Positions 3,104-8,048 of a DNA stretch of 10,264 bases are shown one piece after another. Numbering within the stretch: the first letter of the stretch is position 1; each line of letters starts with the position of its first letter. The notes beneath the pieces are model-generated. The model did not search any database. It had not been told where the DNA came from and worked only from the letters and a program-made list of their open reading frames with translations. Origin of the DNA: Escherichia coli. GTDB taxonomy: Bacteria; Pseudomonadota; Gammaproteobacteria; Enterobacterales; Enterobacteriaceae. The DNA lies in NCBI RefSeq assembly GCF_003334315.1, contig NZ_QOWR01000089.1, one strand, 5' to 3'. The translations under genes and the position numbers were made by a program.

Positions 3104-3940
3104 CTAGCGCAAATCTTTAACGGCCACATGGTCCATATCATCAAAGACCTGGTTTTCACCGACCATGCCCCAGATAAAGGTATAAGCTTTGGTTCCGACG
3201 CCGGAATGAATCGACCAGCTCGGGGAGATCACCGCCTGCTCGTTATGCATCACAATGTGACGCGTTTCTTGCGGCTGCCCCATCATGTGGAAAACGCAGG
3301 CGTCATCATCCATATTGAAATAGAAATAAACTTCCATCCGGCGCTCGTGGGTGTGACACGGCATGGTGTTCCACAAGTTACCCGGAGCCAGCTCCGTCAG
3401 CCCCATACTCAATTGGCAGGTTTCCAGCACATCCGGGACAAAATATTTGTTAATAGTGCGACGGTTACTGGTGAGGTTATCGCCTAACGTGACTGGAGAT
3501 ACTTCGTCCGGGGTGACTTTTTTGGTGGGATACGTCGTATGCGCGGGTGCGCAATTGTAATAAAACTTCGCCGGAGTGGCGGTATCATCACTGGCAAAGA
3601 CAACTTCCTTTGCACCTTTACCAACATACAGGGCGTCGCGGTGACCGATTTCATAGCATTGACCATCGACAGTAATCGTACCGGCACCGCCAATATTGAT
3701 AACACCTAACTCGCGACGTTCAAGGAAATAACTTACGCCGAGTTGTTTACCCACTTCCCCGCCAACGGAAACCGTTTTAGTTACCGGCATAATGCCGCCA
3801 ACAATAATACGGTCAATGTGGCTGTAAACCATGGTGTACTCATCGGCGACAAATACCTCTTCAACCAAAAATTCATTGCGCAGCCCTTGGGTATCCAGCG
3901 TTTTTGCGTGCGCACTGTGGATGCTCTGTCTTACGTCCAC
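3104..3940 (-). CDS. kduI: 5-dehydro-4-deoxy-D-glucuronate isomerase KduI, 278 aa
   Basis: 278-aa product ([24 protein letters not shown]…) matching recalled KduI. RBS ggagg upstream of the ATG; KdgR-type operators lie upstream. Confidence 0.93.
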
Positions 3941-3984
3941 ATCAACCTCCGATAATCAGTGAAGCGTGAAAATAGAAAACGATA

Positions 3985-4001
3985 GTGAAACACTGTTTCG
4001 T
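3985..4001. promoter_or_regulatory. KdgR-type operator (proximal) upstream of kduI
   Basis: gTGAAACAcTGTTTCg is a near-perfect palindrome matching the KdgR box core (TGAAACA-N-TGTTTCA), ~45-60 bp upstream of the kduI start. Confidence 0.6.
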
Positions 4002-4047
4002 TTTCTCTATAAAGGGATGATATGCCCATGGGCTAGGGTTTTCAATT

Positions 4048-4073
4048 AAAAATAAAACAATGTTTCATTTTTA
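4048..4073. promoter_or_regulatory. KdgR-type operator (distal) upstream of kduI
   Basis: aaaatAAAACAaTGTTTcattttt, with the palindromic core AAACA-A-TGTTT flanked by an AT-rich symmetric context, ~110-130 bp upstream of kduI. Confidence 0.55.
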
Positions 4074-4226
4074 ATTTAAGGATTAAAAAAAGTGCAGTGT
4101 CGATCACGAATATGTCATGAGAATGGAAAAATGAGGGAGCCCAGAAAATGTATGTCGACTTGCCAGCCATCATTATTCAACAGATTAATGACGGCAGATA
4201 TTTATCGGTAAGGAGGAAATGCAGAG

Positions 4227-5408
4227 CTACTCGTCACGTTCAATGGTCAATGCCACGCCCTGGCCCCCGCCGATACAAAGCGTTGCCAGCCCTTTGCGGG
4301 CATTACGTTTCACCATTTCATGAACCAGAGAAACCAGGATTCGGCAACCGGAAGCGCCTATCGGGTGACCGAGTGCGATCGCGCCACCATTGACATTGAC
4401 CCGACGCTCATCCCACTCAAGCATCTTGCCAACCGAAAGCGCCTGTGCAGCAAACGCTTCATTAGCCTCGATAAGATCGACATCAGCCAACTGCCAGCCT
4501 ACACGCTCCAGGCAACGGCGGGTCGCATACACCGGCGCAATTCCCATCAATGCCGGATCTACACCAACGCTGGCAAATGCGCGGATGCGGGCCAGCACGG
4601 GTAAATTCAACGCTCGTGCTTTGGCTTCGCTCATCATCATTACCGCAGCTGCGCCATCGTTTATGGATGATGCATTCCCCGCGGTCACAGAACCGAGACT
4701 ATCAAATGAAGGATTTAAACGGGCTAAACCTTCTGCACTGGCGTCAGTGCGTGGCTGTTCATCGGTATCAACAACCAACGTCTGACCGTTACTTTGGATC
4801 ATTACCGGGACGATCTCATCTTTAAATCGTCCGGCGTCAATCGCCGCTCGCGCTTTTTGTTGCGAGCTAAGTGCGTAAGCATCCTGCAACTGACGGCTGA
4901 TGCCATATTCGCGAGCCAGATTTTCGGCGGTGACACCAATATGATAATCATTGAAGGCATCCCACAACCCATCATGCACCAGACTGTCAACCAACTGGCT
5001 ATTGCCAAGCTGTGCACCGGTGCGGCTATCAGTCAGAACATGTGGTGCGCGGCTCATGTTTTCCTGGCCACCGGCGATGACAATATCAGCCTCGCCACAC
5101 TGTATCGCCTGAGTAGCCAGATGCAGTGCTTTAAGCCCGGAACCGCAAACGTCATTAATAGTGATTGCAGAAACGCTATTAGGAAGACCACCTTTAATAG
5201 CCGATTGCCTTGCCGGATTCTGCCCTGCCCCTGCAGTCAACACCTGACCAAGAATTACTTCATCCACCGCATATGCAGGAACGCCGGTACGTTCTATTAA
5301 CGCTTTCACGACCAGACTACCAAGTTCCACGGCGGAATGACCCGCTAACGCACCGCGAAAGCAGCCGATAGGTGTCCGTAACGCCCCGACAATCACAACG
5401 TCTTTCAT
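4227..5408 (-). CDS. yqeF: Thiolase-family acetyl-CoA C-acetyltransferase paralog YqeF, 393 aa
   Basis: Thiolase signatures: active-site Cys in NDVCGSGL, C-terminal GHPIGASG and CIGGGQG motifs. The ATG at 5406-5408 is preferred over the in-frame GTG at 5409-5411 because RBS gagg is at appropriate spacing. Confidence 0.92.
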   Translation of the reverse strand: MKDVVIVGALRTPIGCFRGALAGHSAVELGSLVVKALIERTGVPAYAVDEVILGQVLTAGAGQNPARQSAIKGGLPNSVSAITINDVCGSGLKALHLATQAIQCGEADIVIAGGQENMSRAPHVLTDSRTGAQLGNSQLVDSLVHDGLWDAFNDYHIGVTAENLAREYGISRQLQDAYALSSQQKARAAIDAGRFKDEIVPVMIQSNGQTLVVDTDEQPRTDASAEGLARLNPSFDSLGSVTAGNASSINDGAAAVMMMSEAKARALNLPVLARIRAFASVGVDPALMGIAPVYATRRCLERVGWQLADVDLIEANEAFAAQALSVGKMLEWDERRVNVNGGAIALGHPIGASGCRILVSLVHEMVKRNARKGLATLCIGGGQGVALTIERDE

Positions 5409-5480
5409 CACAACCTCGCACCAATTAACAGTGCAATAGTAAATGATTGTTAATTACAGTTATCTTAATTGTTTAAAAAA

Positions 5481-5496
5481 AGTGATTTTTATCACA
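5481..5496. promoter_or_regulatory. Candidate CRP-like site in the yqeF/yqeG divergent intergenic region
   Basis: aGTGAtttttaTCACa matches TGTGA-N6-TCACA at 8 of 10 core positions; lies between the divergent yqeF and yqeG starts. Confidence 0.35.
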
Positions 5497-5662
5497 AAGG
5501 AAATATGCCTGAGCAGTAGTCAGAGTCATAACTGGCACGTAAGGTTTGCAACCACTAACCCACCAATAGAGGGGTAGATAGGGCGTTAATCTCCCATACT
5601 TAACCTGGTTTATGGTAAATTGCCCTCCATTTTGTTTAATTTGTAGATGATACGTTCAGATA

Positions 5663-6892
5663 ATGTCTAATATTTGGTCTAAAGAAGAAACTCTGTGGAG
5701 TTTCGCGCTCTACGGCACAGCCGTTGGTGCAGGCACGCTCTTCCTTCCTATTCAGTTAGGTTCGGCAGGGGCTGTGGTCCTGTTTATTACTGCTCTGGTC
5801 GCCTGGCCTTTAACATATTGGCCACATAAAGCCTTATGCCAGTTCATCCTCTCATCGAAAACATCAGCAGGTGAAGGGATAACGGGCGCAGTAACACACT
5901 ACTATGGCAAGAAGATTGGTAATCTGATTACCACGCTGTACTTCATCGCCTTTTTTGTCGTCGTGTTGATATATGCAGTGGCAATTACCAACTCACTTAC
6001 GGAACAGCTGGCAAAGCATATGGTTATTGATCTTCGCATCCGTATGTTGGTGAGTCTGGGTGTTGTATTAATCCTGAATCTCATTTTTCTGATGGGACGC
6101 CATGCAACCATTCGGGTAATGGGTTTTTTGGTATTCCCATTGATTGCCTATTTCTTATTTCTTTCCATTTACCTTGTCGGTAGTTGGCAACCTGATCTAT
6201 TAACGACCCAGGTAGAGTTCAATCAGAATACCCTTCACCAGATATGGATATCGATTCCCGTGATGGTTTTCGCCTTTAGCCATACGCCCATTATTTCTAC
6301 GTTTGCCATAGACAGACGTGAAAAATATGGCGAACACGCTATGGATAAATGCAAAAAAATTATGAAAGTCGCTTATCTCATCATCTGCATAAGTGTACTG
6401 TTCTTTGTCTTTAGCTGCCTGCTTTCTATTCCACCTTCGTATATTGAAGCGGCTAAAGAAGAAGGGGTCACCATTTTATCGGCGCTTTCTATGCTGCCGA
6501 ACGCCCCAGCATGGCTGTCAATTTCCGGGATTATTGTCGCAGTAGTTGCGATGTCGAAATCATTCCTGGGTACGTACTTTGGCGTTATTGAAGGTGCCAC
6601 GGAGGTCGTCAAAACAACACTACAGCAGGTTGGTGTAAAGAAAAGTCGTGCATTTAACCGCGCACTATCAATTATGTTGGTATCGCTGATCACCTTCATT
6701 GTTTGTTGCATTAACCCGAACGCGATTTCGATGATTTACGCGATCAGCGGCCCGCTCATTGCCATGATACTTTTCATCATGCCTACGTTGTCAACGTATC
6801 TGATCCCGGCGCTTAAACCCTGGCGTTCCATCGGAAATCTGATTACGCTGATCGTGGGTATCCTGTGCGTATCGGTAATGTTCTTTAGCTGA
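5663..6892 (+). CDS. yqeG: Inner-membrane transporter YqeG (HAAAP family, SdaC/TdcC/TnaB-like), 409 aa
   Basis: Highly hydrophobic multi-helix protein; N-terminus MSNIWSKEETLWSFALYGTAVGAGTLFLPIQLGSAG is typical of hydroxy/aromatic amino acid permeases. Matches recalled YqeG. Confidence 0.88.
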   Translation: MSNIWSKEETLWSFALYGTAVGAGTLFLPIQLGSAGAVVLFITALVAWPLTYWPHKALCQFILSSKTSAGEGITGAVTHYYGKKIGNLITTLYFIAFFVVVLIYAVAITNSLTEQLAKHMVIDLRIRMLVSLGVVLILNLIFLMGRHATIRVMGFLVFPLIAYFLFLSIYLVGSWQPDLLTTQVEFNQNTLHQIWISIPVMVFAFSHTPIISTFAIDRREKYGEHAMDKCKKIMKVAYLIICISVLFFVFSCLLSIPPSYIEAAKEEGVTILSALSMLPNAPAWLSISGIIVAVVAMSKSFLGTYFGVIEGATEVVKTTLQQVGVKKSRAFNRALSIMLVSLITFIVCCINPNAISMIYAISGPLIAMILFIMPTLSTYLIPALKPWRSIGNLITLIVGILCVSVMFFS

Positions 6893-6902
6893 TATCCATT
6901 GT

Positions 6903-6944
6903 GAATGGTTCAAAATTGCTACAATTTTGAACCATTCCAGTTTT
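6903..6944 (+). terminator. Rho-independent terminator after yqeG (long perfect hairpin)
   Basis: Perfect 16-bp inverted repeat gaatggttcaaaattg / caattttgaaccattc (6903-6918 and 6922-6937) followed by cagTTTTcat, beginning 11 bp after the yqeG stop. Confidence 0.7.
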
Positions 6945-7291
6945 CATAATGTTCATTCGTTATTATTCCGCACTATCACTTCCCTCATCATATCCTAGTA
7001 TTATCAGTTATTTAAACACACAAAGAGATCTGAACATCTTAAATAAGACTATTTAAGATGCATAACTTAGATTCGCAAGATATCTTCCGGTCATTCAAAA
7101 ACAATTTGCGATATAGATATTCTCATACCATGAGATAGTTATCTGAACCACCCTCAACCAGGTAAGATTAAATCAGTGAAACATAATCATATTTAATAAC
7201 GAGAAATGCATTTTAAAATGTCTTAATCAGAATTATAGCAAATACAGATTAATCGCAATTTTTCCCAGCAAAATTACAAAATCATGGTGTA

Positions 7292-7320
7292 TTGACATCA
7301 TCAATCACCAATGAAATTAT
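7292..7320 (+). promoter_or_regulatory. Candidate sigma70 promoter for yqeH
   Basis: Perfect -35 TTGACA (7292-7297), 17-bp spacer, -10-like AATTAT (7315-7320). Sits ~30 bp upstream of the yqeH RBS agggagg. Confidence 0.35.
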
Positions 7321-7351
7321 GCAATTATATACGGATAGGGAGGTTCTTAAC

Positions 7352-7984
7352 ATGGGGCTTTGTAGTCGTTATAAAAGTCTTACATGCAATAGTTGCTCAA
7401 TGCATTGCCAAATAATGCCAGAAGAGTCACCGCGTTTGCAGTACTGCGCAAACTCGTGTTTTTGTATGTGGCCCGAAGAAAGTTCATATTTTAATCGTGG
7501 TGTGGTAGAAGGTATCTTAACAAAAAACCACAATGCGAGATTAAGCGGATATATTTTTGTCGATTTTTCAGTAAGTTTTTTACGTCTATTCCTTGAAAAA
7601 TACTGGATTGACTATCTTGCAAGTACTGACATGGGGATTGTTTTAGTCAGCGACCGCAATATGCAATCGTTAGCTAATTACTGGCGAAAACACAACTCAG
7701 CAATATCTGCTGTCATATATAATGATGATGGTCTTGATGTTGCCAATGAAAAGATCAGACAACTATTTATTGGTCGTTATTTATCATTTACCAGAGGTAA
7801 CACATTAACTCAGATGGAATTCACCATAATGGGGTATATGGTTTCTGGTTATAATCCATATCAGATTGCTGAAGTTCTGGATATGGATATCCGTAGCATC
7901 TACGCGTACAAGCAACGAATCGAAAAGAGAATGGGTGGTAAAATAAACGAATTATTTATTCGTTCACATTCGGTCCAACATTGA
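7352..7984 (+). CDS. yqeH: LuxR/FixJ-type HTH transcriptional regulator YqeH with Cys-rich N-terminus, 210 aa
   Basis: C-terminal LuxR-type HTH (LTQMEFTIMGYMVSGYNPYQIAEVLDMDIRSIYAYKQRIEKRMGG). Start assigned to the ATG at 7352 (RBS agggagg 8 nt upstream), not the TTG at 7292 used by the ORF track. Confidence 0.85.
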   Translation: MGLCSRYKSLTCNSCSMHCQIMPEESPRLQYCANSCFCMWPEESSYFNRGVVEGILTKNHNARLSGYIFVDFSVSFLRLFLEKYWIDYLASTDMGIVLVSDRNMQSLANYWRKHNSAISAVIYNDDGLDVANEKIRQLFIGRYLSFTRGNTLTQMEFTIMGYMVSGYNPYQIAEVLDMDIRSIYAYKQRIEKRMGGKINELFIRSHSVQH

Positions 7985-8018
7985 TACTCAACGACCAGCC
8001 AGAATCATACTCTGTTTA

Positions 8019-8048
8019 TACGGGCATTTATTGAAATGTCCGTATTTT
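8019..8048 (+). terminator. Rho-independent terminator after yqeH
   Basis: Stem tacgggcatt / aatgtccgta (one G-U pair), loop tattga, followed by TTTT (8045-8048). Confidence 0.6.

Follow-up and report, generated by a model that had tools for sequence, protein, structure and literature searches.

The window, by which we mean the whole stretch of Escherichia coli DNA analysed here (10,264 nucleotides of contig NZ_QOWR01000089.1), is 97-100% identical to E. coli chromosomes. It carries two genes, yqeF and yqeG, which RefSeq calls here as acetyl-CoA C-acetyltransferase and amino acid permease, respectively, in 5,420 of 5,426 complete genomes. As a preliminary description of this DNA had stated, the two are divergent and separated by a 254-bp spacer (5409-5662), and their coordinates confirm it. 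The annotated ATG of yqeF lies at 5408-5406; the open reading frame called mechanically is one codon longer and starts with a GTG at 5411. An Rfam scan of the whole window found no RNA family. The features of the locus are collected in Table 1.

Table 1. Genes, regulatory elements and other features of the yqeF-yqeG locus (positions are those of the window)
Feature	Position	Strand	Basis and remarks
yqeF CDS	4227-5408	-	RefSeq; 393-aa short-chain (AtoB-like) thiolase, acetyl-CoA C-acetyltransferase
GAGG, yqeF ribosome-binding site	5414-5417	-	GAGGT conserved in 71-sequence alignment
TACTAT, predicted yqeF -10 hexamer	5436-5441	-	TA[C/G]TAT search and alignment
TAACAAT block, promoter spacer	5446-5452	-	Conserved in alignment
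T6 + AAACAAT block, UP-element-like A/T tract	5468-5480	-	Strong conservation; between CRP box and -35 region
CRP box	5481-5496	AGTGATTTTTATCACA as given, TGTGATAAAAATCACT on yqeF strand	Centre 5488.5
Escherichia-specific junction DNA	5503-5608		Site of LysR and PACE genes in other genera
TGGTAAATT, predicted extended -10 of yqeG promoter	5613-5621	+	TATGGTAAATT block conserved across 80-locus alignment
yqeG leader, including TTT(A/G)TAG(T/A)TGATAC	5622-5662	+	Conserved in alignment
yqeG CDS	5663-6892	+	RefSeq; 409-aa HAAAP-family (SdaC/TdcC-like) permease
Terminator-like hairpin, 16-bp stem	6903-6937	+	3' of yqeG

The identities proposed earlier for the two products, a thiolase and an HAAAP-type permease, were borne out by RefSeq and by profile matches. 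YqeF is matched in full by the thiolase models, with 472 bits against TIGR01930 (cut-off 240.55) and 653 bits against NF004206, and it retains the thiolase catalytic residues Cys88, Asn316, His348 and Cys378. Both its score and these residues mark it as a thiolase II/acetyl-CoA C-acetyltransferase (TIGR01930), and the purified protein has been found to condense short acyl-CoAs (PMC9541201). Its paralogue AtoB, from the atoDAEB operon, belongs to the same thiolase II fold family and has the same catalytic residues; the two enzymes share a specificity for short-chain acyl-CoAs, although YqeF is less efficient than AtoB in vitro (PMC9541201), and engineered reversal of beta-oxidation has employed them interchangeably. 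The genomic settings differ, since atoB lies in an operon with CoA-transferase and transporter partners whereas yqeF is a lone gene and has no partners of a pathway close by. According to the list of open reading frames and the RefSeq annotation, the window holds no acyl-CoA ligase, dehydrogenase or hydratase gene.

YqeG is clearly a member of the HAAAP family. Its match to the serine/threonine-transporter subfamily model TIGR00814, which SdaC, TdcC and YhaO match too, is full-length (residues 5-401 align with profile positions 1-397, E = 7e-155), and its score of 516 bits just misses the subfamily cut-off of 525.8. In a published tree it groups with both SdaC and TdcC; it differs from these transporters and from YhaO in that its transport was below detection, yqeG in multicopy having weakly suppressed a threonine-uptake defect without uptake that could be measured (PMC12003319). 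A further difference is that the operons of the three relatives carry a dehydratase that consumes the imported amino acid, whereas yqeG has no dehydratase neighbour in any of the 80 loci compared below.

The spacer contains a candidate binding site for CRP. The 16-mer AGTGATTTTTATCACA has one mismatch to TGTGA-N6-TCACA (9 of 10 core positions agree) and is the sole match with at most one mismatch in the 10.3-kb window. A bare consensus count of this kind is not significant, with 0.51 matches expected and at least one found in 82 of 200 shuffles. We scored the window with a CRP weight matrix trained on 150 other SELEX-listed CRP boxes. The box reached 16.4 bits, exceeding 139 of the 150 training boxes, with 9.3 bits at the next best position in the window; 16.4 bits was attained by one of 200 window shuffles. 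The exact 16-mer is a cAMP-CRP Genomic-SELEX target in vitro, with a peak listed at 2.98369 Mb in the kduI-yqeG interval (Shimada 2011, PMC3105977 Table S3), and the peak position agrees with the K-12 coordinates of the box. No in vivo CRP ChIP record of the box was found in the literature searched, and the supplement of Latif 2018 has yqeF in its promoter table only, not as a Crp site. The strong CRP site between yqeF and yqeG is real, and it is bound in vitro according to the published SELEX; in this respect the preliminary description, which had noted a CRP-like site here, was correct, as the matrix scan, the in vitro selection and the conservation across genera all indicate.

For the cross-genus comparison we used 80 Enterobacteriaceae loci with a yqeG ortholog, 72 of which also have yqeF. 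An alignment was made of 71 distinct sequences upstream of yqeF, drawn from more than 15 genera, and 70 of them were scored for the box. In all 70, TGTGA and TCAC did not vary, whereas the six spacer positions did; the sole exception among the 71 was that of Klebsiella indica, in which the box has a 7-bp spacer. Half-sites under purifying selection around a free spacer are the pattern of a CRP site, and this conservation across genera takes the box well past chance. The sequence [A/G]GTGA-N6-TCACA starts 72-86 bp from the yqeF ATG in all yqeF-bearing loci but one, and the box lies about 81 bp from that ATG regardless of the DNA beyond. Its distance to yqeG is variable, from 136 to 4,324 bp among the yqeF-bearing loci. 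There was no CRP box in the DNA upstream of yqeG in loci without yqeF, nor in the spacer between yqeG and the PACE gene that lies upstream of it in many genera (see below). The comparison shows the box as part of the predicted yqeF promoter alone, travelling with yqeF in every genus and not with yqeG.

The DNA between the box and yqeF would fit an activator-dependent promoter. TA[C/G]TAT is present in all 70 scored sequences, 27-29 nt before the ATG (39-41 nt in the Klebsiella/Raoultella group), and reads TAGTAT in two of the aligned sequences. The centre of the box lies 47.5 bp from this hexamer in 58 sequences, 48.5 bp in 11 and 46.5 bp in one. Judged from the predicted -10, the yqeF start site would be at about 5429. 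A start 7-9 nt past TACTAT puts the box centre at -59.5 to -61.5, and the commonest -10-to-start distance, 7 nt, puts it at -59.5, 2 bp short of the canonical -61.5. On this predicted -10, the yqeF promoter appears to be class I-like and CRP-dependent. With class I CRP promoters of the lacP1 type it has several features in common: one strong TGTGA-N6-TCACA box 5' of a weak -35, an A/T-rich stretch separating these two that would hold the alpha C-terminal domain of RNA polymerase, a -10 with the key A2 and T6 bases, and a carbon-catabolic gene function. It differs in the position of the box, which is near -61.5 in the lacP1 type and would, with the usual spacing, be at -59.5 to -60.5 in yqeF. 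By analogy with class I architecture, the T6-AAACAAT tract is a possible docking place of the RNA polymerase alpha C-terminal domain.

A strict sigma-70 scan of the spacer found no promoter; activator-dependent and extended -10 promoters would be expected to escape such a scan, and the result is not positive evidence for them. We rejected a class II reading that uses TGTAAT (5458-5453) and places the box at -42.5, as other genera conserve TACTAT and not this stretch. Also set aside was the entry '2982432 - TU0-13757 yqeF' in Latif 2018 S1 as a start site: after a shift of +1,978 from MG1655 U00096.2 to.3, it is actually the 3' edge of yqeF, a transcription-unit boundary. Among the entries listed in the supplements of Kim 2012 and Ettwiller 2016, none lies near yqeF or yqeG, and the genes were possibly silent. 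A mapped start of either gene did not emerge from the literature searched. The ATTGTTA/ATTGTTT repeats of this region can be given an ArcA-like reading with 22-bp spacing, in which the middle repeat is not conserved.

Published expression data bear on yqeF. The gene was up at glucose exhaustion (PMC2241611), went down along with fadABDEIJ in a CRP V140W mutant (PMC7174635), and shares a group with fad and prp genes where differential expression has been tabulated (PMC6643234). CRP V140W is a pleiotropic point mutant, not a crp deletion. The catabolite control that the preliminary description had suggested for both genes is thus plausible for yqeF, but the literature searched holds no report of yqeG varying together with yqeF.

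The yqeG side of the spacer has a conserved promoter-like element of its own within 55 bp of the gene. The TATGGTAAATT block near yqeG is kept in all 80 loci whatever the upstream gene, including the loci without yqeF, and we infer from sequence a promoter function for TGGTAAATT, which lies about 45 nt before the yqeG ATG. In E. coli the centre of the CRP box is about 140 bp (about -139.5) upstream of the predicted yqeG start and 174.5 bp from the yqeG ATG; in most genera the box is at least 1.5 kb from the predicted yqeG promoter. To our knowledge, about 140 bp upstream of a start is outside the positions from which CRP activates, so no action of the box on yqeG is expected. The earlier proposal of a site common to both genes is therefore not supported, the box being fixed relative to yqeF only and the yqeG promoter lying about 140 bp away. 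In the eight of 80 loci where yqeG occurs without yqeF, its neighbours are hut-like, MFS transporter, fimbrial or large-toxin-like ORFs; they differ per lineage, and no consistent partner gene of yqeG was found among these loci.

The E. coli spacer is a composite of 94 bp of conserved yqeF promoter, a 106-bp unconstrained junction and 54 bp of conserved yqeG promoter. Although yqeF and yqeG are at most 6 kb apart in 72 of 80 loci, shared chromosomal order accounts equally well for this loose linkage, and direct adjacency is seen in only about 15 of the 72 loci holding both genes. In 52 of these 72, a divergent pair of LysR and PACE genes lies between them and parts yqeF from yqeG by about 1.65 kb or more. 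In Citrobacter and Enterobacter the end of the LysR gene is immediately next to the CRP box. The PACE protein (151 aa; Citrobacter werkmanii, L012:5403-5858) scores 212 bits against NF033665, above the cut-off of 165, and the best match of the intervening LysR is AceR, with a score of 115 against an equivalog cut-off of 500. These related loci therefore resemble AceI/AceR in pairing a PACE protein with a divergent LysR; they differ from it in the low AceR score, and Escherichia is without the pair, tblastn of Escherichia loci having come back empty. The pair is whole in S. enterica subsp. diarizonae, and only a LysR fragment is left in subsp. arizonae. Homology between E. coli and Citrobacter ends at 5502 on the yqeF side and restarts at 5609 on the yqeG side, and the junction between these points had no blastn match to Citrobacter. 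Aligned with 12 other gaps, the E. coli junction gave scores in the range of shuffles, with no sign of LysR/PACE remnants or of homology to lineages with a short gap. Compared with the cryptic Escherichia clades, E. coli is 68-73% identical in the junction and 89-98% in the flanking promoter blocks. Parsimony and the S. arizonae remnant suggest that the pair was most likely lost in Escherichia rather than gained elsewhere.

We consider it very probable that yqeF and yqeG are two independent single-gene units, placed back to back in Escherichia only, and that the CRP box is yqeF's own. The yqeF promoter, with its strong CRP box, T6-AAACAAT tract, poor -35 and TACTAT, would be a weak one in need of an activator. 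When glucose is exhausted, cAMP-CRP would recruit RNA polymerase to it through the alpha C-terminal domain, in the class I, lac-type manner. yqeG would be read from its own extended -10, TGGTAAATT, and have its own terminator, and the loss of the ancestral LysR/PACE pair in Escherichia would have made the two genes neighbours. Their adjacency is a matter of chance and not of a co-regulated module, and nothing favours a common site.

The preliminary description had taken the locus for a catabolite-controlled uptake and beta-oxidation-like module. An old functional module of this kind, in which a substrate is taken up and then broken down thiolytically by divergent genes under one CRP site, would agree with the divergent adjacency in all Escherichia, the single strong box in the spacer and the proximity of the genes in other loci. 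The HAAAP genes tdcC and sdaC, moreover, belong to catabolite-controlled operons. We nevertheless find it scarcely credible: an unrelated regulator and efflux pair intervenes in most loci that hold both genes, the box keeps a constant distance to yqeF only, and yqeG occurs without yqeF beside quite different genes, there without a CRP box. In addition, a thiolase alone does not make a pathway, none of the further enzymes is encoded in the window, acyl-CoA substrates do not come from an amino-acid permease, and co-expression is unreported in the literature searched. As for the box itself, it might be a palindrome kept as the operator of another dimeric regulator, or as a site of CRP repression. 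The conserved T6-AAACAAT and TAACAAT that flank it (ATTGTTT and ATTGTTA, 22 bp apart, on the opposite strand) and a predicted position 1-2 bp off the canonical -61.5 could be read in that way. We regard this as very improbable, since the invariant bases are the TGTGA/TCAC half-sites contacted by CRP with the 6-bp spacer left free, purified cAMP-CRP selects the box DNA (PMC3105977), and yqeF shifts as activation predicts, rising when glucose runs out and falling along with the fad genes in the CRP mutant.

Somewhat less remote, and still unlikely, is that the yqeF box came to influence yqeG as well after the LysR/PACE pair had been lost in Escherichia, be it by acting from afar, by way of a minor promoter within the junction or by counteracting H-NS silencing spread from the neighbouring ETT2 island. 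The yqeG ATG now lies 174.5 bp from the box instead of 1.6 kb; DNA from within yqeF via yqeG to ygeI has served as an H-NS-silenced 'CHIN' fragment (PMC12460168); and the GC content of yqeG, about 44%, is below that of yqeF, about 53%, with island DNA of 30-38% GC adjoining yqeG. Against this, the distance to the predicted yqeG -10 is beyond the known CRP activation positions, and by eye the junction has no -10-like hexamer in register at 41.5, 61.5, 71.5 or 82.5 bp. Within Escherichia, moreover, no part of the spacer is less conserved than the junction, which argues against a newly acquired function. There is a small chance that the Escherichia box has a second role, acting on yqeG from a long range or against its silencing, or bounding the spread of H-NS at the edge of the ETT2 domain; if true, this would exemplify the rewiring of regulation through a deletion.

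With two independent units as the preferred reading, the locus can be set beside known divergent pairs under CRP control. It shares with glpTQ/glpABC, fucAO/fucPIK and caiT/fixA the divergent arrangement, a CRP box in the spacer and a similar listing in the SELEX table. In each known pair, however, both partners act in one pathway, whereas the yqeF/yqeG pairing is confined to some lineages and the box is in register with yqeF only; the pairing is not conserved across taxa, nor is the box at a working distance from both promoters. The annotation of both genes, the thiolase activity of YqeF and the presence of the box in the SELEX table were already known. What is added here is that the box is among the most constrained elements of what appears to be a self-contained yqeF promoter conserved across Enterobacteriaceae, and that the two genes came to be adjacent in E. 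coli as a lineage-specific outcome, which removes the main argument for a cryptic catabolic module. Beyond a tidier annotation the significance is small. Where a regulator site lies between divergent genes, regulon tables usually credit it to both, and the locus calls for caution in reading them; it also provides a clean model of the yqeF promoter that can be tested, yqeF being in use for engineering the reversal of beta-oxidation.

The window, 10,264 bp long, is chromosomal DNA of E. coli. Its segment from 4000 to 7200 matches strain 14EC001 at 100%, and both yqeF and yqeG are annotated in the matching DNA of 5,420 of 5,426 complete E. coli genomes. The minus strand carries araE, kduD, kduI and yqeF, in this order, and they are followed on the plus strand by yqeG, yqeH, yqeI and yqeJ; 254 bp separate yqeF from yqeG. 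YqeF is a thiolase along its full length (TIGR01930, 472 bits against a cut-off of 240.55) and retains Cys88, Asn316, His348 and Cys378. Short acyl-CoAs are condensed by purified YqeF (PMC9541201), and its overexpression has served to run beta-oxidation in reverse (PMC3370425). The whole of YqeG aligns with the HAAAP serine/threonine-transporter subfamily (E = 7e-155; 516 bits against a cut-off of 525.8). Multicopy yqeG weakly suppressed a threonine-uptake defect; uptake itself was not measurable (PMC12003319). The genes and coordinates of the preliminary description are therefore correct. In strain DDG206 (NZ_CP130710.1), yqeG is interrupted by an IS903B-type IS5-family element, which suggests that yqeG is dispensable.

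The spacer contains the CRP box AGTGATTTTTATCACA. Judged by the consensus alone, the box is unremarkable, 0.51 matches with at most one mismatch being expected across the window. Using a weight matrix trained on 150 other boxes from Shimada et al. 2011, Table S3, we obtained a score of 16.4 bits, exceeding 139 of those 150 boxes; the second-best position in the window scores 9.3 bits, and 16.4 bits was attained in 1 of 200 shuffles. In that table (PMC3105977), the identical 16-mer appears among the cAMP-CRP Genomic-SELEX targets, placed at 2.98369 Mb in the interval from kduI to yqeG, a position that fits K-12 yqeF (2,984,411-2,985,592) and yqeG (2,985,847-2,987,076) after a 1,978-bp shift between MG1655 reference versions. 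In vitro binding of CRP to this box is therefore already published, and the CRP-like site of the preliminary description is real.

The site had been taken to be shared by both genes. Scanning one genome per species gave 80 Enterobacteriaceae loci with a YqeG ortholog (73-99% identity), in 72 of which yqeF lies upstream of yqeG on the opposite strand. The two start codons are 254 bp apart in Escherichia and 208-387 bp apart in Pluralibacter, Superficieibacter, Pseudenterobacter, Intestinirhabdus and Klebsiella indica. The gap is 1.64-1.86 kb long in Citrobacter, S. enterica subsp. diarizonae, Enterobacter, Kluyvera, Lelliottia, Raoultella, Klebsiella and others, and it reaches 4.4 kb in Silvania and Leclercia. 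In all yqeF-bearing loci but one, [A/G]GTGA-N6-TCACA begins 72-86 bp (mostly 72-75 bp) from the yqeF ATG, a distance held wherever yqeG lies, and no second CRP box was found anywhere in their yqeF-yqeG gap. Loci without yqeF have no CRP box within 400 bp upstream of yqeG, save for one orphaned site: Escherichia sp. MOD1-EC7003 (3592-6001 of its locus) is without kduD, kduI and yqeF, araE lies about 1 kb from yqeG, and the box persists 182 bp before yqeG.

In an alignment of the 140 bp upstream of yqeF (71 distinct sequences), conservation begins abruptly at the CRP box and continues to the ATG, in the order TGTGA-N6-TCAC, a T6-AAACAAT tract, a variable stretch, TAACAAT, TACTAT and a GAGG ribosome-binding site. 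Among the 70 sequences whose box is regular, TGTGA and TCAC are the same throughout and the six spacer positions vary; the sole disrupted site, in Klebsiella indica, has a spacer of 7 bp instead of the usual 6 (TGTGATTCATGCTCAC). The box centre lies 47.5 bp (n=58), 48.5 bp (n=11) or 46.5 bp (n=1) from the first base of TACTAT, the predicted -10. If transcription starts 7-9 nt past this element, the box is at -59.5 to -61.5, the -35 position is occupied by GATAAC, a poor match, and the conserved T6-AAA tract spans roughly -51 to -39. In class I promoters, such a region is occupied by the alpha C-terminal domain of RNA polymerase. From the predicted start, we infer that yqeF has a lac-type class I CRP-dependent promoter, at which cAMP-CRP would act from the box and the T6-AAA tract would be the place of the alpha C-terminal domain. 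A class II reading through TGTAAT (5458-5453) was rejected because that stretch is not conserved.

The yqeG side was examined in an alignment of its upstream 170 bp. Conservation is confined to the last ~55 bp, with nothing conserved beyond, and includes the TATGGTAAATT block, which is kept whether the upstream neighbor is a PACE efflux gene, yqeF or another gene. With a predicted yqeG start near 5628, the CRP box would be at about -139.5; yqeG thus appears to have its own promoter, beyond reach of the box. In every lineage without yqeF the neighbors of yqeG are different, so yqeG behaves as a stand-alone gene. Judged from these alignments, the CRP box is a fixed component of the putative yqeF promoter, and a site shared with yqeG is not supported. 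The yqeG leader, with TTT(A/G)TAG(T/A)TGATAC, is conserved across genera, and no obvious Shine-Dalgarno sequence is visible in it.

Features of the yqeF-yqeG region and the kduI promoter (window coordinates)
Feature	Position	Strand	Remark
kduI promoter	4017-4045	-	TTGAAA-17-TATCAT
yqeF CDS	4227-5408	-	annotation; mechanical ORF longer by one GTG codon
TACTAT	5441-5436	-	predicted -10 of yqeF, conserved in alignment
CRP box	5481-5496		centre 5488.5
TATGGTAAATT block	5611-5621		reads as extended -10 (TG-n-TAAATT), then conserved leader
yqeG leader	5622-5662
yqeG CDS	5663-6892	+
Terminator-like hairpin	6903-6937		16-bp stem, 3' of yqeG

Published expression data are consistent with a CRP-activated yqeF. 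In O157 Sakai, yqeF is up at the transition out of glucose-supported growth (PMC2241611); in a CRP V140W mutant it is down together with fadABDEIJ (PMC7174635); and a differential-expression table of a ptsA deletion versus wild type in dihydroxyacetone medium places it in one group with fad and prp genes (PMC6643234). Of the proposed catabolite control, the part concerning yqeF is thus supported by box and expression data, and the part extending it to yqeG through a common site is not. On the plus strand, the TAACAAT (5446-5452) and AAACAAT (5468-5474) blocks read ATTGTTA and ATTGTTT, 22 bp apart, and bear a likeness to ArcA TGTTA half-sites; in Enterobacter-type sequences the same stretch is a palindrome, AACAATTA-N3-TAATTGTT. 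These blocks may be bound by another regulator of yqeF besides CRP.

The extra DNA of the long gaps carries two genes, a LysR regulator (294 aa, yqeF strand; top model match AceR, far under its cut-off) and a divergent PACE efflux transporter (151 aa; NF033665, 212 bits against a cut-off of 165). Of the 72 loci, 52 carry this pair, a few with frameshift-like breaks, and no Escherichia locus has it. In Citrobacter werkmanii it occupies positions 4417-5858 of the locus; there, and in the 51 further loci, it lies in the slot equivalent to 5503-5608 of the window. By blastn, the yqeF side of Citrobacter matches 5381-5502 of the window and its yqeG side 5609-5700; the junction, 5503-5608, has no counterpart in Citrobacter or in any other gap compared, other short-gap lineages included. 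E. coli and the cryptic Escherichia clades share 68-73% identity over the junction, against 89-98% over the two promoter blocks. The spacer is a composite. S. enterica subsp. arizonae retains LysR residues 117-286 only (5339-5837 of its locus) and lacks the PACE gene, within a gap of 790 bp; in subsp. diarizonae both genes are complete. The arizonae locus thus resembles a deletion still under way, and deletions therefore occur in this slot. Since the closest relatives of Escherichia, Citrobacter and Salmonella, carry the pair, we infer by parsimony that it was lost in Escherichia and, independently, in other lineages. No remnant of the pair survives in E. coli. Such a deletion would have brought yqeF and yqeG back to back.

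The yqeF-yqeG adjacency is lineage-specific and no pathway partners are present, so that a divergent uptake and beta-oxidation module, as had been suggested, finds no support. It is improbable, though conceivable, that the box, having come close to yqeG in Escherichia, now has some effect on this gene or on H-NS silencing where the ETT2 island begins; a region from inside yqeF to ygeI has served as an H-NS-silenced fragment (PMC12460168). GC content falls from ~53% in yqeF to ~44% in yqeG and 30-38% in yqeH, yqeI and yqeJ (~6900-9870); this is the border of the ETT2 type III secretion island, reportedly silenced by H-NS.

Elsewhere in the window, the kduI promoter sequence is found among the constitutive RpoD promoters of PMC3946193, where it is flagged for H-NS. 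At the other end (9876-10264), GGTAATGACTCCAACTTATTGATAGT at 9876 resembles the IS1 terminal inverted repeat, and GC content jumps to ~55% across the last few hundred bases; the window therefore seems to end within IS1. Strain 14EC001 has its IS1 CDS placed ~87 bp differently, so that the window probably derives from a different strain. The AT-rich DNA upstream of araE (1999-2312; 31-36% GC) contains the araE control region. To this the SELEX table of Shimada et al. 2011 (Table S3; PMC3105977) assigns ATTGATAGTAACCATT, a weak CRP box; our consensus scan found TGTGATGGATATTCCA at 2111-2126.
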